Below, piece by piece: positions 37,666 to 64,000 of a stretch of DNA of 64,000 nucleotides. The notes under the pieces are model-generated. The model was not told where the DNA came from. It ran no database searches and saw only the letters and a program-made list of their open reading frames with translations. The stretch is from Candidatus Solibacter sp. GTDB taxonomy: Bacteria; Chloroflexota; Dormibacteria; DASZGP01. Every line of letters starts with the position of its first letter. Within the stretch, counting starts at the first letter, position 1. The stretch is taken from assembly GCA_035569605.1 (NCBI GenBank), contig DATMMS010000005.1, positions 212,990-276,989 on the forward strand, given 5' to 3'. Both the position numbers and the translations under genes were made by a program.

Positions 37666-38238
37666 ATGGCAGATGAGGCGATGATCGAGGATCTCCTTCG
37701 CGAGGCGGAGGTGAAGATGCAGAAGTCACTCGATGCATTGCACAAGGAGCTGTCCACCATCCGTACCGGTCGGGCAACCCCCGCACTGCTGGAGCGGGTG
37801 CACGTCGACTACTACGGCACCCAGACCGCCCTGCAGCAGCTGGCGCAGGTCCACGCGCCGGAGCCGCGGTTGCTGGTGATCCAGCCCTACGACCGCAGCT
37901 CGATAGCGGCGATCGAGAAAGAGCTGCAGAAGTCGGAGCTCGGCCTCAACCCGTCGAACGACGGGCAGGTCATCCGGATCCCCTTCCCACCGCTGACGGA
38001 GGACCGCCGCAAGGAGCTGGTCAAGGTCGTCAAGCACAAGATCGAGGAGTCACGCGTCGCGATCCGGAACATCCGCCGCGACGAGCAGCACGGGATCCAG
38101 GAGTTCGAGAAGGAGCATCTGATCTCGCAGGACGACGCCAAGCGCGGGCTCGACCACCTTCAAAAGATCACGGACAAGTTCATCGCATCCGCCGACGAGA
38201 CCGGCGCCCGGAAAGAGGCGGAGATCCTGGAGGTCTAG
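37666..38238 (+). CDS. frr: ribosome recycling factor
   Basis: Canonical RRF sequence throughout. Confidence 0.9.
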   Translation: MADEAMIEDLLREAEVKMQKSLDALHKELSTIRTGRATPALLERVHVDYYGTQTALQQLAQVHAPEPRLLVIQPYDRSSIAAIEKELQKSELGLNPSNDGQVIRIPFPPLTEDRRKELVKVVKHKIEESRVAIRNIRRDEQHGIQEFEKEHLISQDDAKRGLDHLQKITDKFIASADETGARKEAEILEV

Positions 38239-38365
38239 GGCTTTAGCGCATCCGGCGGCTGATGCAGTGCCCAAGGTCCATCGCCCTCCACCACCCGAAG
38301 GCGGATCTCGCCGGCGCCCCGGCCTTCGGCATTGCCAGTCCTGGCCGCTGGCCGCCCCGCCGACG

Positions 38366-39010
38366 TTATTGGCGCACGAATCGGACGTGCGTCACCGAGG
38401 CCGACCCGACCATCTCGACGTTCTCGTAGCCGACCGGTCCACCGTCCAGATCGTCAAACAGGCGCTCGCCGCTCCCCAGGAAGATGGGCACGATCGCCAC
38501 GTGCAGCTCGTCGATGAGACGAGCGCGCAGGTACTGCTGGATGGTCGCCGCGCCGCCCCCCAGGCGCACGTCGGCGCCTCCCGCCGCCTCGAACGCCCGC
38601 GACAACGCCGCCTCCATCCCATCGGTCACGAAGTTGAACGTCGTCCCGCCCTGCATCACCAAGGGAGGCCGTGGATAGCGCGTCAGCACGAACACCTGGT
38701 GGTGGTATGGCGGTTCGTCGCCCCACCAACCCTTCCACTCCTCGTCGGGCCACGGCCCGCGGATCGGGCCGAACATGTTGCGTCCGATGATCGTGGCGCC
38801 GATGCCGGTGTCGCCCGCTACCATGAACCGCTCGTCGAGGCCCTCGTCGCCACCCTCCTGGCCGATCATGCGACGGCCGTAACGGGTCGCGAAGACCCAT
38901 TCGTGCAGCCGCTGCCCGCCGACGCCGAGCGGGTCATCAAGGCTCTGCAGCGGCCCGGCGCCGTACCCGTCGACGGAGATCGCGAAGTTATGGACGCGCA
39001 GTTTCGGCAT
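38366..39010 (-). CDS. dihydrofolate reductase-like / RibD C-terminal domain family reductase
   Basis: MPKLRVHNFAISVDGYGAG matches the YwjB/RibD_C-type DHFR-like family. Confidence 0.75.
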   Translation of the reverse strand: MPKLRVHNFAISVDGYGAGPLQSLDDPLGVGGQRLHEWVFATRYGRRMIGQEGGDEGLDERFMVAGDTGIGATIIGRNMFGPIRGPWPDEEWKGWWGDEPPYHHQVFVLTRYPRPPLVMQGGTTFNFVTDGMEAALSRAFEAAGGADVRLGGGAATIQQYLRARLIDELHVAIVPIFLGSGERLFDDLDGGPVGYENVEMVGSASVTHVRFVRQ

Positions 39011-39048
39011 CGCGATTTACCTTACGCCCCGTTTCCGAGTTGCGCTCC

Positions 39049-39498
39049 CTATGCCGGATCTGGGACAGCCGCCTCCATCAGCGCCTTCATCGTTTCGGCG
39101 GCCGCTTCGAGTTGCTTCTTAACCAGTCGCACCACCACCGGCTCGGCCAGTTTCACGAAGCCGCGGCTCTCGCCTCGGTAGACGTTTGTCAGCTTGGTTC
39201 CGTCCTGGGTCGGCTCCAGTGTGCTCTCGAGCTCCAGATGGAACGGGCCGGCGGCCGTTTTGGCGATGAACCTTTGGTTGGGGATGTACTCCGTGTACTC
39301 CTGGGTGATCTCGAAGCTGCGGCCCAAGAACTTCCCCTCGAAGACGATCTTCGTACCGACGCCTAGCGGGCCCTCGCTGGTCGGGTAGGCCTTAGTCAGT
39401 CCGGCGTTCCACTCCGGCATCCGATCGAAATCCTCGAGAAAGGCCCACACCTCACTGACGGGTCGGTCAATGGTTGTCACGATCTCGAACTGGTTCAT
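39049..39498 (-). CDS. SRPBCC (START/Bet v1-like, polyketide cyclase-type) family protein
   Basis: Start at MNQFEIV with GGAGG upstream. SRPBCC-like size and pattern. The tool's longer ORF has a low-complexity N-terminal extension that is unlikely to be real. Confidence 0.65.
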   Translation of the reverse strand: MNQFEIVTTIDRPVSEVWAFLEDFDRMPEWNAGLTKAYPTSEGPLGVGTKIVFEGKFLGRSFEITQEYTEYIPNQRFIAKTAAGPFHLELESTLEPTQDGTKLTNVYRGESRGFVKLAEPVVVRLVKKQLEAAAETMKALMEAAVPDPA

Positions 39499-55791: not shown

Positions 55792-56061
55792 ATGGGGCTG
55801 TCCGCCGGCGGCCGGGGTGACCGCAGCGACGACAGGAGGTTTCGTATGGCGCGTACCGGACCGGGGTTTGTGATCGGGGTAGTGGTCGGAGGTTTTGGTG
55901 GGTTCGCCGCCGGGTATCTCCTTTCTCGTAATGGCCATTCCGACGCCGACCATTCGATTGGCTCAATCGACCTCACCCCTGCGATCGAGCTCAAGAACCG
56001 CGTCCGCACCCCGATTGACCTTCCCGCCAAGCCCGAGAAGCCAGAAGAGAAGCCGGCCTGA
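55792..56061 (+). CDS. hypothetical small protein with one TM helix (usfY-like by position)
   Basis: ORF immediately upstream of the anti-sigma/sigma pair. GG-rich TM segment. Confidence 0.35.
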   Translation: MGLSAGGRGDRSDDRRFRMARTGPGFVIGVVVGGFGGFAAGYLLSRNGHSDADHSIGSIDLTPAIELKNRVRTPIDLPAKPEKPEEKPA

Positions 56062-56084: not shown

Positions 56085-56675
56085 GTGACCCGGTCGCAGG
56101 GCGCCCTCGTCAGCGAGCTGAAGATCCCGGCTCAGGCGGCCTTCGTGATGGTTGCCAAGCGGGCCGCCAGCGCGCTGGGGTCTACCGCGGGGTTCTCCCT
56201 CGAGGGCATCGACGATCTCAACATCGCGGTGGCGCAGGCCTGTGAGAAGGCGATCGCCGCCGGAGACCGGATGTGGGGGCCCGGGAATGGTGTGCTCAAG
56301 CTCAGCTTCCGGATCGTCGACGGTGGGATGGAGGTGGAGGTTCGCAGCCTGCCCGCCCGGATGGGGTCGGCTGAGGAGGACGCCGTCCGCCACCAGGCCG
56401 AGCTGGCGCGCAAGGCCGAGTCGCTGCGCCGCACCGCCTTCCGGCTCTCGCAGGAGGTCGAGATCGAGCGCCGCCAGCGGCTGGCCGCGCAGCGCGAGGC
56501 GCGCGCGATGCGAACGGCGCAACAGCCCGCCGGCGTGGCAGCCGCCGGGGAATCCGACGTTGACCTTGAGGACGTGGCCGTCAACATGATCCGAATGTTC
56601 GTCGACGAGCTCCGCTACAACGTGGACTCGCATGGCAGCATGCGGATGAGGATGGTCAAGTACCTCGTCGACTGA
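56085..56675 (+). CDS. RsbW/UsfX-like anti-sigma factor with degenerate GHKL fold and a ~60-aa charged insert
   Basis: N-terminal half aligns with RsbW (LKIPAQAAFVMVAKRAASALG...IDDLNIAVAQACEKAI). No recognisable G1/G2 glycine boxes. The C-terminal end MVKYL is RsbW-like. Confidence 0.6.
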   Translation: MTRSQGALVSELKIPAQAAFVMVAKRAASALGSTAGFSLEGIDDLNIAVAQACEKAIAAGDRMWGPGNGVLKLSFRIVDGGMEVEVRSLPARMGSAEEDAVRHQAELARKAESLRRTAFRLSQEVEIERRQRLAAQREARAMRTAQQPAGVAAAGESDVDLEDVAVNMIRMFVDELRYNVDSHGSMRMRMVKYLVD

Positions 56676-56773
56676 GCCCCGAGGAACCTCCCCGCAGCTC
56701 CGTCGCCGAGCGTCAGCGCGAACTACTCGCGCGGTACCACGAGACCAGGGACCCCGCCATCAGGCAGCAGCTG

Positions 56774-57451
56774 GTGGAGGCCTACACCAACCTCGTGTAT
56801 TTCCTGGCCCGAAAGTTCGCCAACCGCGGCGAGCCTTTCGAGGACGTCGCCCAGGTCGGCTTCATGGGACTGCTGCTGGCGCTCGACCGCTTCGAGCCCG
56901 AGCGCGGCCTCGAGTTCACTACCTTCGCCACGCCCACCATCGTCGGAGAGATCAAGCGCTACTTCCGGGATAAGAGCTGGGCGGTGCGCATCCCGCGCCG
57001 GCTGCAGGAGCTGAACCAGCGGGCGCGCCAGGCGGGGGAGAAGTTGCAGAACCAGCTCGGCCGGGCCCCCAGCGTCCAGGAGCTGGCCGCCGAGCTGGGC
57101 GTCTCCGAGGAGGAGATCCTGGAGGCCTACGAGGCCGGCCCGGTGCAGCAGACGGTGCCCCTCGATTCGACCAGCGCCACGCCCACGGGGGATGAGGGCC
57201 TGTCGCTCTCCGAGCGGCTGGGTGGCGAGGATGAGAACCTCCAGAGGGTCGAACTGCAGGGACTGCTGGACTCCGCGATGACCCATCTGACTCCGCGCGA
57301 GCGCGAGATCATGTACCTGCGCTTTGTCGAGGAGCTGCCCCAGAGCGAGGTGGCTCGACGGCTGGGAATCTCCCAAATGCACGTTTCCCGGCTCCAGCGC
57401 GCCGCCGTCGACAGCCTCAAGCGGCAGCTGGAGGCTTCGGCCAGCGTCTGA
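56774..57451 (+). CDS. group 3 (SigB/SigF-type) RNA polymerase sigma factor; minimal coordinates from the first canonical start codon
   Basis: Regions 2-4 are conserved (ARKF...FATPTIVGEIKRYFRD; C-terminal HTH EVARRLGISQMHVSRLQR). A conserved N-terminal region (ERQRELLARYHETRDPAIRQQL) continues in frame upstream back to 56570, with no ATG/GTG/TTG. A CTG lies at 56672. Confidence 0.85.
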   Translation: MEAYTNLVYFLARKFANRGEPFEDVAQVGFMGLLLALDRFEPERGLEFTTFATPTIVGEIKRYFRDKSWAVRIPRRLQELNQRARQAGEKLQNQLGRAPSVQELAAELGVSEEEILEAYEAGPVQQTVPLDSTSATPTGDEGLSLSERLGGEDENLQRVELQGLLDSAMTHLTPREREIMYLRFVEELPQSEVARRLGISQMHVSRLQRAAVDSLKRQLEASASV

Positions 57452-57535: not shown

Positions 57536-60108
<2,573 letters not shown>

Positions 60109-60112
<4 letters not shown>

Positions 60113-61362
60113 AGCGCTTCCTCAACCGGCGCAACCAGGCCGCCAACCACTACACCGCGCTAGACATCGGCACCGAGTACATCAAGGCGCTGATCATCCG
60201 GCGCGAGGGTGACAACGGCATCGTGCTCGGGGTCGGCCGCCAGCAGCAGTCCTACTCGGACATGGTCTCGGGCGCGGTCGCCGACATCCAGGCGGTGATC
60301 GACAACTGCAACCACGCCCTGGAGCAGGCCGAGGACATGGCCGAGGCCATCCCCGGCCGCGCCGTCATCGGGATCGCCGGCGAGCAGGTGAAGGGCTTCT
60401 CGACGTCGGTGACGGTGCCGCGCCAGGACCCCGGCCAGCGCATCAACCGGGTCGAGCTGCAGAACACCCTGGAGATGGTGCAGAAGCGGGCGATGCGCGA
60501 GGCCGCCCACCTGATGGGGGAGGAGCTTGGCGTCCCCGAGGTCAACCTGAAGCTGATCCACTCCACCATCACGACCGTGCGCATTGACGGCTACCTGGTC
60601 ACCAACCCCATGGACTTCCAGGGCCGGTCGATGGAGATCACGGTCTTCAACACCTTCGCGCCGCTGACCCACATCGGTGCGCTCCAGACCATCGCCGCCG
60701 AGCTGGACCTGGAGCTGATCGCGACGGTGGCCGAGCCCTTCGCGATGGCCCGCTGCTGCGCCACCGACGAGGTCTACGAGTTCGGCGGCATCTTCGTCGA
60801 CGTCGGCGGCGGCACCACCGACGTGGCCCTGATCCGCAACGGCGGGATCGAGGGCACCAAGATGTTCACCATCGGGGGCCGCGTCTTCACCAAGAAGATC
60901 GCCGCCCACCTCAACATGAGCTTTGTCGAGGCCGAGGACCTCAAGGTCCGCTATTCCCGCGGCGAGGTTTCGGAGGATCGTGTCAAGCAGCTGCGGTCGC
61001 TGCTGGCGCCTGACGCCGAGGTCCTGGTGAACGGCGTGGCGCTGACGCTGCAGCAGCTGGCCAAGGCCGACCGGCTGCCCTCCAACATCTACCTGGCAGG
61101 GGGTGGAAGCGCCCTTCCCGAGATCGAGGAGTACCTCAACTCCTACCCCTGGATGGAGCGGCTGCCGTTCCCCAAGCAGCCGGCGGTAAGGGCGCTGGCG
61201 CCGACGGACGTACGTAACATCTACGATTCCACAGGATTACTTCTGAACCAGCAGGACATCACCCCCATGGGCCTGGGCTACCAGGCGATCCAGGAGGACG
61301 AAGGGGAGAAGGACCTGCTCTACAGCACCATGCGACGCATCATGCGCGCGATGAAGGTTTGA
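60109..61362 (+). CDS. FtsA-like actin-fold ATPase with C-terminal amphipathic helix
   Basis: ASKHA motifs: phosphate-1 LDIGTEYIKALI, phosphate-2 VDVGGGTTDVAL, adenosine LAGGGSALPEI. SHS2-type insert present. C-terminal LLYSTMRRIMRAMKV. ATGA-coupled to alaS. Confidence 0.75.
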
Positions 61363-61371
61363 CCTGAAGCC

Positions 61372-62979
61372 ATGTCGAAGCTGATCTACGCCGAACCGGA
61401 CGACGAGATAACCAATCTCGTCGACCGGCTGCGCTCGGAGAAGGCCGAGAAGGAGCTGGTCTTCGTCCTGCCCGGCGCCTCTCGGGTGATGCATTCGAAC
61501 CTCAACGCCAGGCTTCTCAAGCAGTACAGCAACTCGCTGGGCAAGACGACGTCGGTGATCAGCCCGGACCCGCGCACCCAGTCGATCGCGATCGAGACCG
61601 GGTTCTCGGTGTTTCCGACGATGGCCGCATTCGAGTCGGGCAAGGCTCTCGATCGCGCCGTCGACAGCAGCTCGGCAGCAGAGCCCGCCGGGATCCTAGC
61701 GCCCCTTCCCGCCGCCGCCGACCCTTCGTTTGGCGCGCCATCGGCGTCCATGGGTCGCGCTGCGCCGCCACCCGCCCCGGTCCGGACCCCACGTCCCAAG
61801 CCGGAGCCCCGCACCCTTCCTGCTGTGACCGGTGGGCGCGCCGGCTACCTGCCGTACGTACTGGGTGGGGTCGGGGTGCTCCTGATCCTGATCATCCTGG
61901 GGCTGTTCGTGCTGCCTTCGGCGACGGTGCAGATCGTGATCCCGGCGCGGGCGATCGCCGCGCAACCCACGGTGACCGGCCAGACCGCGGCGCCTGGTCC
62001 GAGCGACAGCGCGACGGTGCAGACGACCATCCAGCAAGGCCAGGAGCAGATGCAGCAGGCGAACATCCCGTCGACCGGGCAGAAGACCATCCCCGCGGCC
62101 CCGGCTACCGGTAACGTCGTGTTCACGTACACCAATCCGGGGATCGCCTTGGGCTTCGACCTCCCCAAGGGCACGGAAGTCACCACCGACGACGGCAAGA
62201 AATACCAGACCCAGGCAGACAGCGGCAACATCGGCCGAAATCAGAGCTCACCGCCGATACCGGTCGCCGCCGAGACCGGCGGCGCCTCCACCAACACTCC
62301 CGCCGGGTCGATCAAGAACATCACCGGTAACCCCAACCCGGACCAGCTGAAGGTCACCAACCCCAGCGACGTCACCGGCGGCGCCGACGCCACTCAGCAG
62401 ACGGTGGTCTCCCAGACCGACCAGGACAAGGTCAAGAAGACCCTCGGCGACCAGCTGACCACCAAGGTCCAGGCCGACCTGCAGAAGACCGCGGGCAGCC
62501 AGCGGCTGCTCGCCGAGACGCTGGTGGTCAGCGTCGACGCCAGCTACGACCACAAGCCCGGCGACAATGTGCCCAATTTCACAGCCACGGTGACAGTCAA
62601 GGCCAGCGAGACCAGCCTCGACGACGCCAAGGTCAAGCAAGTCCTCACCGACGCGCTCAAGAAGCAGGCCCCGGCCGGCTACACCCTCATCGACACGCCC
62701 AAGCCAAAGCTCGCCTACACCGTGGCCCAGCACGACGACAAGGGCGGAGTCATCCTCAACGGGACCGCCTCGGGCTTCATGGCCACCGCCATCAACAAGG
62801 ACGACATCCGCACCCACATCACCGGCAAATCGATCAAGCAGGCGCGCGCCTACATCCAGGGCAACCTCGACTCCAGCAACGTGATCATCACCGAGAGCCC
62901 CTCGCTGGTGCCGTGGCTGCCTTTCATGTCGAGCCGGATCTCTGTCAACACCACCGTGGAAAACGCCACGCCCGGATGA
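61372..62979 (+). CDS. bitopic membrane protein: ~100-aa cytoplasmic N-domain, Pro/Ala linker, one TM, ~335-aa Thr/Gln-rich extracytoplasmic domain
   Basis: Starts 10 nt after the FtsA-like gene. TM segment YLPYVLGGVGVLLILIILGLFVLP. Its stop overlaps the ruvX start (ATGA). Confidence 0.5.
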   Translation: MSKLIYAEPDDEITNLVDRLRSEKAEKELVFVLPGASRVMHSNLNARLLKQYSNSLGKTTSVISPDPRTQSIAIETGFSVFPTMAAFESGKALDRAVDSSSAAEPAGILAPLPAAADPSFGAPSASMGRAAPPPAPVRTPRPKPEPRTLPAVTGGRAGYLPYVLGGVGVLLILIILGLFVLPSATVQIVIPARAIAAQPTVTGQTAAPGPSDSATVQTTIQQGQEQMQQANIPSTGQKTIPAAPATGNVVFTYTNPGIALGFDLPKGTEVTTDDGKKYQTQADSGNIGRNQSSPPIPVAAETGGASTNTPAGSIKNITGNPNPDQLKVTNPSDVTGGADATQQTVVSQTDQDKVKKTLGDQLTTKVQADLQKTAGSQRLLAETLVVSVDASYDHKPGDNVPNFTATVTVKASETSLDDAKVKQVLTDALKKQAPAGYTLIDTPKPKLAYTVAQHDDKGGVILNGTASGFMATAINKDDIRTHITGKSIKQARAYIQGNLDSSNVIITESPSLVPWLPFMSSRISVNTTVENATPG

Positions 62980-63422
62980 GGGTGCTGGCGGTCGACCCCG
63001 GTCGGGTGAGGGTCGGCCTGGCCTTGAGCGACGAAGGCGCCCGGTTGGCGACTCCGCACTCCACGCTCCCGGGCGGAGCCGGGCTGGCCACCCGCATCGT
63101 CGAGGTCGCCGAGGACGCCGGCGCGGGAACCATCGTGGTCGGCCTCCCCCGGCGTCTCGACGGCACCGAGGGCTTGGAGGCCGAAGCTGCTCGGGCGCTG
63201 GCGGCCGAGATCTCGGCGACGAGCGGACTTGCCGTGGAGCTGTGGGACGAGCGCTTCACCAGCTCGATGGCCGAGGCAGCGCTCAAGATCTCGCGACCGA
63301 GGCGGGGCGCCAAGGTCGCCGGCGCCCGTCGCGAGGCCGCCGACCGGGTCGCCGCCGCGGTCCTGCTCCAGTCTTATCTCGATCGGCGCCAAGCCGCCCC
63401 CGAAAAAGCAGCTCCTCAGTGA
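62976..63422 (+). CDS. ruvX: Holliday junction resolvase-like RuvX/YqgF
   Basis: MRVLAVDPGRVRVGLALSDE RNase H-like motif. ATG 62976 chosen. Confidence 0.85.
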   Translation: MRVLAVDPGRVRVGLALSDEGARLATPHSTLPGGAGLATRIVEVAEDAGAGTIVVGLPRRLDGTEGLEAEAARALAAEISATSGLAVELWDERFTSSMAEAALKISRPRRGAKVAGARREAADRVAAAVLLQSYLDRRQAAPEKAAPQ

Positions 63423-64000
63423 ACCCGGGCCGGACGTTCGCCATCGCGGCGGCCATCGCCCTACTCCTGATCGGCGGTGGGGCGTTTGCCGCCAACCGGG
63501 CCTACAACAGCCAGGTCTACGACGCCCGCCGCGCCGGCCAGGGCGTCGCGCTGGTGGACATCCCGGCGGGCGCGAGCGTCTCCGAGATCGGCGACATCCT
63601 GTCGCGGCAGGGGCTGATCGGAAGCACCCTGGCCTTCGAGATCTACGTCCGCGCCAACGGATTGGCCAACCGGCTCGAGGCGGGCCACTACCGCATTCGT
63701 GGCGGGCTGAGCATGGCGGCCACGCTGGACCTGCTCACGCACGCCGCCGGCGCCCAGGTGCGGGTCACCGTGCCCGAGGGTTTCACCGAGAAACAGATCG
63801 CGCAGCTGATGGAGAAGAAAGGGCTGTTCAACGCGACCGCGTTCCTCGACGCCGCCAACAAGGGGACGTACACCCAGCCCTACCTGGCCGGCAGGCCGGC
63901 CGGCTACGGTCTCGAGGGATACCTCTTCCCGGACACTTACTTCCTGGACCCCAAGGCCACGCCGGCCGAAGTGATCAGCGTCCTTCTCGAGGACTTCGGC
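63419..64000 (+). CDS. mltG: endolytic murein transglycosylase MltG (YceG-like), 3' end outside the window
   Basis: GTG start overlaps the ruvX stop. N-terminal TM segment and the hallmark motif EGYLFPDTY. The frame is open to the window end. Confidence 0.85.
   Translation, partial: MNPGRTFAIAAAIALLLIGGGAFAANRAYNSQVYDARRAGQGVALVDIPAGASVSEIGDILSRQGLIGSTLAFEIYVRANGLANRLEAGHYRIRGGLSMAATLDLLTHAAGAQVRVTVPEGFTEKQIAQLMEKKGLFNATAFLDAANKGTYTQPYLAGRPAGYGLEGYLFPDTYFLDPKATPAEVISVLLEDFG

Follow-up and report, generated by a model that had tools for sequence, protein, structure and literature searches.

Three solutions in which an actin-like ATPase is combined with a bitopic membrane protein have been described, namely MreB-RodZ, FtsA-FtsN and PilM-PilN. 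In MreB-RodZ, a membrane-associated actin homolog is paired with a type II bitopic protein through the latter's folded cytoplasmic domain (a helix-turn-helix); this protein also has a Pro-rich linker and an extracytoplasmic domain, and the pair is linked to wall synthesis. FtsA has an actin fold with the FtsA-type subdomain 1C, ATP motifs and a C-terminal amphipathic helix, and is kept near ftsZ and the dcw cluster; on the side of its partners (FtsN/ZipA), FtsN has a short cytoplasmic peptide and a SPOR ectodomain, and FtsQ (DivIB) of the same machinery has a POTRA domain. PilM is an FtsA-like ATPase with the bitopic PilN encoded directly downstream in a pilus operon, and PilN, which has a small ferredoxin-like domain in the periplasm, reaches PilM by means of a short peptide at its N-terminus. 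Two further groups are relevant by fold: the J/gp47/gp6 baseplate wedge proteins (PF04865) of myophages, tailocins and contractile injection systems, which are a class that oligomerises into rings, and the STAS domains of the SpoIIAA/RsbV antagonists and the SulP/SLC26 transporters. Here we describe a gene pair that, by domain and neighbourhood tests, belongs to none of the FtsA-FtsN, FtsA-FtsQ and PilM-PilN families, as a preliminary description of this DNA had held.

Layout and synteny of the five-gene block

In the window (the whole stretch of DNA that was analysed, 64 kb), alaS, gene 1, gene 2, ruvX and mltG are arranged head to tail on one strand (+). The open reading frames, junctions and profile matches confirmed the earlier observation of a gene pair in the alaS-ruvX-mltG unit. 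The features are as follows.

56085..56675, plus strand: RsbW-like anti-sigma module (weak match); upstream, possibly linked, outside the core pair
56774..57451, plus strand: SigB/SigF/SigG-family sigma factor; upstream, possibly linked, outside the core pair
57536..60112, plus strand: alaS, alanyl-tRNA synthetase, 858 aa, first in the block (Pfam tRNA-synt_2c 4e-166, tRNA_SAD, DHHA1)
60109..61362, plus strand: gene 1, 417 aa, divergent FtsA-family actin-fold ATPase (PF14450 FtsA and TIGR01174 matches)
61315..61359, plus strand: C-terminal amphipathic helix of gene 1, aa 403-417, LLYSTMRRIMRAMKV, putative membrane-targeting sequence
61372..62979, plus strand: gene 2, 535 aa, type II bitopic membrane protein
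61372..61656, plus strand: cytoplasmic N-domain of gene 2, aa 1-95, STAS-like alpha/beta fold
61657..61851, plus strand: linker of gene 2, aa 96-160, Pro/Ala-rich, disordered, basic close to the membrane
61852..61917, plus strand: transmembrane helix of gene 2, aa about 161-182, followed by a conserved LPSATV motif
61918..62976, plus strand: ectodomain of gene 2, aa 183-535, baseplate wedge J/gp47/gp6-like
62976..63422, plus strand: ruvX, 148 aa (PF03652 RuvX 3.5e-30, profile positions 1-133 from residue 1)
63419..64000, plus strand: 5' part of mltG/yceG, GTG start, running off the window (TIGR00247 MltG 1e-19)

The preliminary description had given every junction as a 4-nt overlap. This held for three of the four, namely alaS/gene 1 (ATGA, 60109-60112), gene 2/ruvX (ATGA, 62976-62979) and ruvX/mltG (GTGA, 63419-63422), and did not hold for gene 1/gene 2, where a 9-nt spacer lies between the stop codon (61360-62) and the ATG at 61372. 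Gene 1 and gene 2 share a reading frame. The start positions of ruvX (62976) and mltG (63419) were considered sound because the Pfam RuvX profile begins at residue 1 and TIGR00247 at residue 12. Neither a plus-strand terminator-like site nor an Rfam element was found within the five-gene block. The three overlaps and the 9-nt spacer, the lack of an internal terminator-like site and the kept gene order indicate that the five genes are coupled in one operon.

For synteny, all metagenomic contexts and all 80 species genomes whose contigs reach far enough were used; the species genomes were scanned with gene 1 as the query, and all of the pair-carrying genomes examined were uncultured MAGs. In every related context, including the 80 species genomes, the pair was retained between alaS and ruvX, which settled the check on retention in relatives that had been proposed earlier, and a full YceG (mltG) gene was present at the same position in the related loci. 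The pair was found in Dormibacterota-type genomes and in genomes of the Limnocylindria type (Limnocylindria we take to be a class of Chloroflexota in GTDB). The synteny is phylum-wide, and the five-gene order is ancestral and invariant across both types, so the view of the pair as a local insertion that interrupts alaS-ruvX-mltG was abandoned.

Gene 1 was the most conserved gene of the block (identity across groups 58-86%, versus 45-64% for alaS), a level typical of a polymer-forming or hub protein, and gene 2 was the fastest evolving. Within gene 2, the cytoplasmic domain was best conserved (44%, versus 28-33% for the rest), as would be expected if it contacts the slowly evolving product of gene 1. 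Few gene sets at a core housekeeping locus of the phylum are as constrained as this pair, which makes it a strong candidate for a central role in the envelope.

The order alaS-ruvX-mltG is common in Terrabacteria that do not have the pair. That the pair is linked to mltG and ruvX could reflect an inherited gene order with no shared function.

The FtsA-family ATPase encoded by gene 1

Gene 1 passed the Pfam FtsA model (PF14450, 4e-17, 63 bits versus a cutoff of 31.8) and matched the FtsA equivalog TIGR01174 at 113.2 bits (1.4e-32; under the cutoff of 175.85) and NF007009 at 52.5 bits (cutoff 409). Because the TIGR01174 cutoff is not reached, NCBI names the orthologs only 'FtsA domain-containing'; some other sources label them 'cell division protein FtsA'. 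The gene 1 profile aligned continuously with FtsA residues 6-263, that is, subdomains 1A-1C-2A (1C/SHS2 replaces 1B), and the closest solved relatives were FtsA. With Foldseek, FtsA ranked first (3e-19) and PilM next (E 1.5e-16), and only these two matched over the full length, the matches to MreB and ParM being partial; the structural model behind this ranking was of low confidence (mean pLDDT 57.5, shallow alignment), and no structural detail was drawn from it. The FtsA resemblance stated in the preliminary description was thus borne out at the level of profiles, alignment and fold.

The three actin-fold nucleotide-binding motifs (phosphate 1, phosphate 2 and adenosine) were intact, as had been noted before; they were kept in 112-113 of 113 orthologs and were invariant in the sequence sets A2 and A3. 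No transmembrane segment was found in gene 1. The hydrophobic moment peaked in the C-terminal 11-mer (0.84, residues 406-416), and this tail was conserved among the orthologs as MR[KR][IV][LM][KR]AM[KR]V, in line with the FtsA-like amphipathic helix, putatively membrane-targeting, that had been pointed out at the C-terminus. Judging from its sequence, gene 1 encodes an FtsA-domain protein, a divergent member of the FtsA family rather than a certified FtsA ortholog.

Gene 1 might instead be the only FtsA of the lineage, an FtsZ tether relocated from ftsZ, with gene 2 as a divisome partner that replaces FtsN/FtsQ/ZipA-type proteins. That FtsA tops both the sequence and the fold matches would agree with this, as would the FtsA-like putative membrane-targeting helix, the label 'cell division protein FtsA' given by some sources, and the extreme conservation of gene 1, which fits an essential core division protein. 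However, the TIGR01174 score stays well under its cutoff, and the neighbours of the pair were housekeeping genes: neither ftsZ, ftsQ nor any dcw gene was found within 57 kb upstream in the window or within 6-10 kb on either side in about 90 related loci, so that the earlier statement on the isolation of gene 1 from these genes stands. Likewise, FtsZ signatures were absent from all frames of the window and from the flanks of the about 90 loci, where the sole motif match (locus L037) meets a stop codon a few residues later. Moreover, Limnocylindria-labelled genomes carry the pair, whereas in Chloroflexota ftsA-ftsZ normally stay at the dcw cluster (PMC10608941). We regard a sole, relocated FtsA as rather unlikely.

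The bitopic partner and the upstream sigma-factor genes

Gene 2 has a single hydrophobic segment (about 161-182; in a 19-residue Kyte-Doolittle scan the value peaked at 3.06, at residue 163), preceded by an Arg/Lys excess; P182 and A184 are invariant. It is an N-in, single-pass protein with a long flexible linker, as in the FtsN/ZipA type. The AlphaFold model had a mean pLDDT of 83, with residues 99-161 below 50, and the linker was hypervariable in both length and sequence; the ectodomain contained 13% Thr and 8% Gln. The Pro/Ala linker, one transmembrane segment and Thr/Gln-rich ectodomain of the preliminary description were therefore retained, and its statement that the partner could not be assigned to a family was replaced: the fold searches that it had proposed led to the baseplate wedge proteins for the ectodomain and to the STAS fold for the N-domain.

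The whole ectodomain adopts the wedge-protein fold, and its structural matches were baseplate wedge proteins (J/gp47/gp6). The ectodomain alone covered the matched phage chains fully, and these had no counterpart to the transmembrane helix or the cytoplasmic domain. At the sequence level, 12 of the 14 aligned members of the gene 2 family matched Baseplate_J (PF04865, cutoff 21.1 bits; best E 4e-11, 24-38 bits) over a stretch that corresponds to residues about 230-340 of gene 2 in the window, although the window protein itself gave no match to this model at E<=10. NCBI already calls some orthologs 'baseplate J/gp47 family protein'. We conclude that the ectodomain is a homolog of the Baseplate_J/gp47-type wedge proteins, differing from them in being membrane-anchored, predicted to be extracytoplasmic, fused to a cytoplasmic domain and encoded among housekeeping genes. 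The family is very large. It counts thousands of 50%-identity clusters, and an exhaustive profile search at E<=1e-3 gave 15,191 representatives, whereas a word-indexed search with the gene 2 profile had added 5 proteins only. Its annotation nevertheless goes no further than 'hypothetical' or 'baseplate J/gp47 family'.

Homology to phage and injection-system wedge proteins could also mean that gene 2 is a prophage or contractile-injection-system remnant that stands at this locus by chance. However, tail, sheath, tube and other baseplate genes were absent from the window and the related loci, the GC content equals that of the host, and gene 2 is fixed among housekeeping genes in at least 80 species genomes, with its extra transmembrane helix and cytoplasmic domain. 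By synteny and architecture, this explanation is effectively refuted and is given almost no weight.

Structural comparison showed a STAS alpha/beta fold for the N-domain (aa 1-95). No Pfam STAS match was obtained with the gene 2 sequence, a PDB profile search returned no STAS protein, and hhalign against SpoIIAA (with a sequence not taken from a database record) gave a probability of 0.1%. In view of the PDB profile search and hhalign results, the domain is referred to as a STAS fold, not as a member of the STAS family. Position 42 was Ser/Thr in 214 of 220 family members; by the order of secondary structure elements in the model, it would cap the N-terminus of helix alpha-2, where SpoIIAA/RsbV carry their phospho-serine. 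The gene 2 domain resembles the STAS domains of SLC26 also in being a cytoplasmic appendage on a membrane protein, and differs from STAS antagonists and transporters in the lack of sequence similarity and in its location N-terminal to a single transmembrane segment.

No match to HTH (HTH_25), SPOR or POTRA domains was obtained with gene 2 in Pfam/NCBIfam. Unlike FtsN, gene 2 thus has a folded STAS-like cytoplasmic domain in place of a short peptide and a baseplate J-like ectodomain in place of SPOR, and unlike FtsQ it is devoid of POTRA. In logic the pair may be compared with MreB-RodZ: here too, an actin homolog, presumably membrane-associated, is combined with a type II bitopic protein that has a folded domain in the cytoplasm, a Pro-rich linker and an extracytoplasmic domain, and wall synthesis is presumably involved; however, gene 1 is in the FtsA/PilM clade, the cytoplasmic domain has a STAS fold instead of the RodZ helix-turn-helix, and the ectodomains are unrelated.

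The order of an FtsA-like ATPase gene and a directly following bitopic protein gene is also that of pilM-pilN, and the pair could be a PilM-PilN-like inner-membrane platform for a pilus or secretion machine. Gene 1 matched PilM_2 (PF11104, 2.8e-8) and TIGR01175 (39.7 bits versus a cutoff of 133, 3e-10) in addition to the PilM structures; in related loci, a Peptidase_A24 prepilin peptidase gene occurred downstream at a distance of a few genes, and two of these loci had TadE genes upstream. Nevertheless, FtsA scored better than PilM at every level (TIGR01174 1e-32 versus TIGR01175 3e-10), pilN, pilO, pilP, pilQ, pilB, pilC and pilT-type genes were adjacent in no locus, and gene 2 has a folded N-terminus instead of the PilN-type peptide and an ectodomain unlike PilN/PilO. 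PilM-PilN identity was rejected on these grounds, and a pilus or secretion platform seems very improbable.

The genes upstream of alaS bear on the STAS fold. The sigma gene scored 258 bits with TIGR02980 (cutoff 234), and the RsbW-like gene was a weak match (HATPase_c_2, 23 bits versus a cutoff of 27.4; TIGR01924 RsbW, 40 bits versus 155). In about 57 of 65 loci, the RsbW-like and SigB/F/G sigma genes lie ahead of alaS, the sigma copies being 56-87% identical, and no recognisable STAS gene lies beside them. Gene 2 could accordingly be read as a membrane-tethered partner-switching antagonist, whose STAS domain, with its Ser/Thr at position 42, would be a binding partner, and perhaps a phosphorylation substrate, of the RsbW-like protein and would link the envelope status sensed by the ectodomain to a SigB/F-type sigma factor, with gene 1 as an accessory. 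This reading is weakened by the negative STAS searches and the below-cutoff kinase-like matches, and by the fact that in 8 of 65 loci, that of Limnocylindria among them, the sigma and kinase-like genes are missing while gene 1 and gene 2 remain. It also gives no reason why the pairing with an extremely conserved actin-like ATPase should be so strict, and we consider it improbable.

A low-GC lineage has a single protein at the same position between alaS and ruvX-mltG with the same ectodomain (hhalign 97.6%); the STAS-like domain is absent from it, which is a further point against partner switching. Its cytoplasmic region could be aligned weakly and collinearly with gene 1, in one segment at E 2.9e-4 and in another that was not significant, which is one marginal profile-profile match (probability 23-40% with the family profile); single-sequence tests of the same N-region with Pfam, PDB and hhalign were all negative. 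The low-GC protein may be a fusion of this ectodomain with a degenerate domain resembling gene 1.

A possible membrane-spanning module at the cell envelope

The earlier interpretation of the pair as a whole was partly supported. The pair is probably a cell-envelope or division module, and a cell-wall or division role is suggested by the linkage to mltG. As a specific mechanism, to which we give somewhat less than even weight, we propose a membrane-spanning module, conserved and specific to the lineage, in which gene 1 engages gene 2 and the ectodomain acts with MltG on the wall. Gene 1 would bind ATP on the inner face of the membrane, held there by its C-terminal amphipathic helix, and, like FtsA, would probably form membrane-bound oligomers or filaments. 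Gene 2 would serve as its transmembrane adaptor, with the STAS-fold domain kept near the membrane by the flexible Pro/Ala linker and the transmembrane helix joining the cytoplasmic part to the wedge-homologous ectodomain, which, as in other wedge proteins, might oligomerise. Engagement of the cytoplasmic domain by the gene 1 assembly would position or cluster the ectodomain in the wall compartment, where, together with the co-transcribed MltG glycan-strand terminase, it would contribute to peptidoglycan growth or division. The logic would be that of MreB-RodZ, FtsA-FtsN or PilM-PilN, with partner domains that are not related to theirs. We know of no characterised precedent for the wedge fold outside the membrane, and the function given to the ectodomain is for that reason guesswork.

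A more far-reaching proposal, possible but doubtful, is that a wedge protein was recruited as a cell-surface domain and wired across the membrane to a dedicated, extremely conserved FtsA-type ATPase through a STAS adaptor in Dormibacterota and Limnocylindria, and in the low-GC lineage was fused directly with a degenerate domain of the actin fold. The module would then be an unrecognised envelope-spanning morphogenetic or division machine that works with MltG, possibly as the main division tether.

A search of the literature found no description of the gene pair, nor anything on division genes of Dormibacterota, in agreement with the earlier view of the pair as an undescribed module. Dormibacterota are abundant in soil; to our knowledge they have no cultured member, and the growth and division of their cells are undescribed. 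If the proposed mechanism is correct, the pair would be a fourth solution to the combination of an actin-like ATPase with a bitopic adaptor, and, as far as we know, would provide the first baseplate wedge fold beyond contractile machines, on the outer face of the cytoplasmic membrane. Both proteins are of small size and the model of gene 2 is a confident one, which opens the proposed interactions to direct tests in vitro.

The five-gene block

The genes of the block were established in the window by ORF listing and direct reading of the sequence.

Genes of the block
57536-60112, plus strand: alaS, first of five co-directional genes
60109-61362, plus strand: gene 1, 417 aa
61372-62979, plus strand: gene 2, 535 aa
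62976-63422, plus strand: ruvX; the RuvX profile begins at residue 1 of the chosen start
63419 (GTG) to the window end, plus strand: mltG; the MltG profile begins at residue 12 of the chosen start

The preliminary description had every junction as a stop/start overlap, which holds for three of the four: alaS/gene 1 and gene 2/ruvX overlap by ATGA at the coordinates it reported, and ruvX/mltG overlaps by GTGA, but gene 1 and gene 2 are separated by a 9-nt spacer. Neither a plus-strand terminator-like site nor an Rfam family was found inside the block, so transcription as one unit beginning at alaS is plausible. The GC content of the block (0.63-0.73) is uniform with that of its surroundings.

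Relatives of gene 1 were found in 423 genomes (scan with one genome per GTDB species), and in the best 80 of them the five window proteins served as tblastn queries to examine synteny. All sufficiently long contigs of these 80 kept the order alaS, gene 1, gene 2, ruvX, a check that the preliminary description had proposed; so did all metagenomic contigs retrieved, with gene 2 identity down to 24-30%. The two genes had been taken to interrupt an alaS-ruvX-mltG unit; given the same order in every informative related locus, this view gives way to a five-gene block that is ancient and fixed. When the gene 2 profile was run exhaustively with HMMER, 15,191 representatives (50% identity) reached E<=1e-3, and 4,908 of them E<=1e-30; the top 150 matches are all long, and most run end to end, N-domain included.

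The named orthologs belong overwhelmingly to Candidatus Dormibacterota, some being labelled Chloroflexota or Limnocylindria. Among the carriers of the pair, OY970355.1 (3.34 Mb), CAWCZS010000002.1 (2.70 Mb) and a 2.75-Mb JGI contig (with protein P0027) represent complete or nearly complete genomes. All of the genomes examined that carry the pair are uncultured, and the best 80 of the 423 are all MAGs of a Dormibacterota-type group, several with implausible labels. The Dormibacterota-type locus occurs in MAGs labelled Eisenbacteria, Angelobacter, Acidiferrales, Saccharimonadales, Binatia and Verrucomicrobiae (e.g. loci L019, L027, L070, L075), and the exact window protein (P0001) was deposited as 'Candidatus Solibacter sp.'; these odd labels, the last included, are probably taxonomic mislabels of bins.

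The gene 1 and gene 2 proteins

Gene 1 matched Pfam FtsA (4e-17), as well as MreB_Mbl and PilM_2, and TIGR01174 ftsA at 1.4e-32 (113 bits; the equivalog cutoff of 175.85 was not reached); scores with the pilM, eutJ and mreB models were far below that of TIGR01174. The family profile aligned continuously to residues 6-263 of FtsA among the solved structures (subdomains 1A, 1C and 2A). The AlphaFold model was poor (pLDDT 57.5, shallow alignment); Foldseek with this model gave FtsA at 3e-19 over approximately 400 columns, PilM at 1.5e-16, and only partial matches to MreB, ParM and Hsp70, an order consistent with the sequence results. The three nucleotide-binding motifs noticed at first reading are present, and 112-113 of 113 orthologs retain them. 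The protein has no TM segment, and the FtsA-like C-terminal amphipathic helix was likewise borne out: the amphipathic moment of the protein peaks in the last 11 residues, and orthologs share the tail MR[KR][IV][LM][KR]AM[KR]V. From the motifs, the tail and the FtsA profile matches, together with the sub-cutoff TIGR01174 score, gene 1 is an FtsA-family protein with a putative FtsA-like membrane-targeting helix, uncertified as an FtsA ortholog. The main rival reading, that gene 1 is simply the only FtsA of the lineage, would fit these family matches and is considered less likely than the reading preferred below; the literature searched had nothing that bears on it. The preliminary description rightly stated that gene 1 is not beside ftsZ, the FtsZ signature being absent from the upstream 57 kb.

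Searches of Pfam, NCBIfam and PDB sequences with the window gene 2 protein gave no match. The AlphaFold model built from a 14-sequence alignment (A1) had a mean pLDDT of 83 (approximately 90 in the folded parts).

Regions of the gene 2 protein in the AlphaFold model
Residues 1-95: alpha/beta N-domain
Residues 99-161: Pro/Ala linker, disordered
Residues ~162-179: TM helix
Residues 183-530: large, beta-rich ectodomain

Hydropathy gave exactly one TM segment, and the excess of Arg/Lys on its N-terminal side indicates a predicted N-in/C-out orientation. Foldseek of the ectodomain against the PDB returned baseplate wedge proteins of phi812, A-1(L), phiCD508, Mu (gp47), Pa193 and P1, with E down to 5e-7 over 340-360 columns, nearly the whole length of the wedge proteins. 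Independently of Foldseek, all but two of the 14 sequences in the family alignment (12 of 14) scored above gathering with Pfam Baseplate_J (best E, 4e-11), and some orthologs were already named 'baseplate J/gp47 family protein' by NCBI. The N-domain was called a STAS fold and, because a sequence-level STAS signal was absent, was not placed in the STAS family.

Conservation and possible function of the pair

Median identities to the window proteins were calculated in three divergence tiers.

Median identity to the window protein (three divergence tiers)
Gene 1: 86 / 65 / 58%
alaS: 64 / 47 / 45%
ruvX: 63 / 42 / 50%
mltG: 51 / 34 / 29%
Gene 2: 48 / 33 / 31%

That an actin-family protein evolves at a slower pace than an aminoacyl-tRNA synthetase would be expected if it forms polymers or acts as a hub. 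The best conserved region of gene 2 is the cytoplasmic N-domain (44% mean pairwise identity vs 28-33% for the ectodomain), whose conserved residues include E12, R19, R21, S42 and R47-L49, and in deep branches it is the only part still detected by BLAST; this pattern is consistent with a contact, which we infer, to the slowly evolving gene 1 protein.

The best-supported reading, held tentatively, is that gene 1 would assemble in an ATP-dependent manner on the inner face of the membrane, and that these assemblies would engage the cytoplasmic domain of gene 2, so that the wedge-like, probably oligomerising ectodomain might be positioned or clustered in the wall compartment beside the presumably co-expressed MltG, suggesting a role in the wall or in division. 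The analysis establishes the identities of the domains, the topology, the operon structure, the synteny and the conservation; it infers the contact between the two proteins, polymerisation, oligomerisation of the ectodomain and the role in the wall or in division. The logic is the same as in MreB-RodZ, FtsA-FtsN and PilM-PilN, although the partner domains are unrelated. The separate domains are of known kinds, and both genes are already auto-labelled in databases; literature searches found no description of the pair, of its architecture (an FtsA-like ATPase with a partner that combines a STAS fold, a TM and a baseplate J ectodomain), of its phylum-wide fixation at alaS-ruvX-mltG or of its conservation pattern. 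For a specialist, the surprise is the coupling of a predicted extracytoplasmic baseplate-wedge domain to an ultra-conserved FtsA paralog.

One distant match, the retrieved protein P0202 (727 aa), pointed to a low-GC lineage (34-40% GC) with a fixed block of its own: short alaS, a ~700-aa membrane protein, sortase, ruvX and mltG (loci L087, L092-L099; e.g. L096:4215-10305), with ftsK and a RodZ-type HTH_25 gene upstream. The ectodomain of gene 2 has a homolog in the C-terminal 350 residues of the ~700-aa protein (hhalign 97.6%, E 3.7e-12); this protein has no STAS-like domain, and a separate gene 1 is absent from the block. Its conserved ~240-aa cytoplasmic region gave no match as a single sequence. 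When a family profile was used instead, residues 171-234 aligned with the adenosine-motif region of gene 1 (residues 313-375; E 2.9e-4 to 8.8e-4, probability 23-40%), with a YPW...P.V signature in common; a second, non-significant segment in the same order paired residues 92-151 with the 'AEPxA' and phosphate-2 region of gene 1 (residues 188-247). The profile alignment shows no 2B region and a loss of the glycine motifs. The protein may be a Rosetta-stone fusion in which a degenerate gene-1-like actin-fold domain is joined to the ectodomain protein, a lead rather than a result.

Genes around the block

The 57 kb upstream are housekeeping (topA, cdsA, dxr, ispG, proS, relA/spoT, hisS, aspS and a BrkB-like gene). 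Directly upstream of alaS is the following module.

Sigma module
56085-57451: RsbW-like anti-sigma module (weak; below family cutoffs, with an apparent insertion) and SigB/SigF/SigG-family sigma factor (clear)

The RsbW-like/sigma pair occurs in approximately 57 of 65 loci and is absent from eight, a Limnocylindria locus among these; no recognisable STAS antagonist gene stands beside it. With the STAS fold of the gene 2 N-domain and a Ser/Thr at family position 42 in 214 of 220 members, partner-switching between gene 2 and this module is a legitimate minor rival.

Between the BrkB-like and RsbW-like genes, an 89-aa ORF (55792-56061) has one hydrophobic Gly-rich segment and no family match; the equivalent position in L090 has small ORFs (89 and 58 aa) with no family given. 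A 352-aa plus-strand ORF (38123-39181) without a Pfam match at E<=1e-5 could be an artefact of high GC or a gene yet to be assigned. The window also contains, on the plus strand, an FMN riboswitch (RF00050, 5366-5505, 114 bits) and a tRNA gene (RF00005, 648-731, 52 bits). In related loci L001, L002, L004, L089 and L090, genes for a Peptidase_A24 prepilin peptidase and bPH_2 are conserved downstream of mltG, among aro genes, efp and nusB; TadE-like genes lie approximately 8 kb upstream in L089 and L090. In L091:4902-7716, the ORF calls divide alaS into pieces of 533 and 316 aa, which probably reflects a frameshift or a faulty assembly and not a true split.
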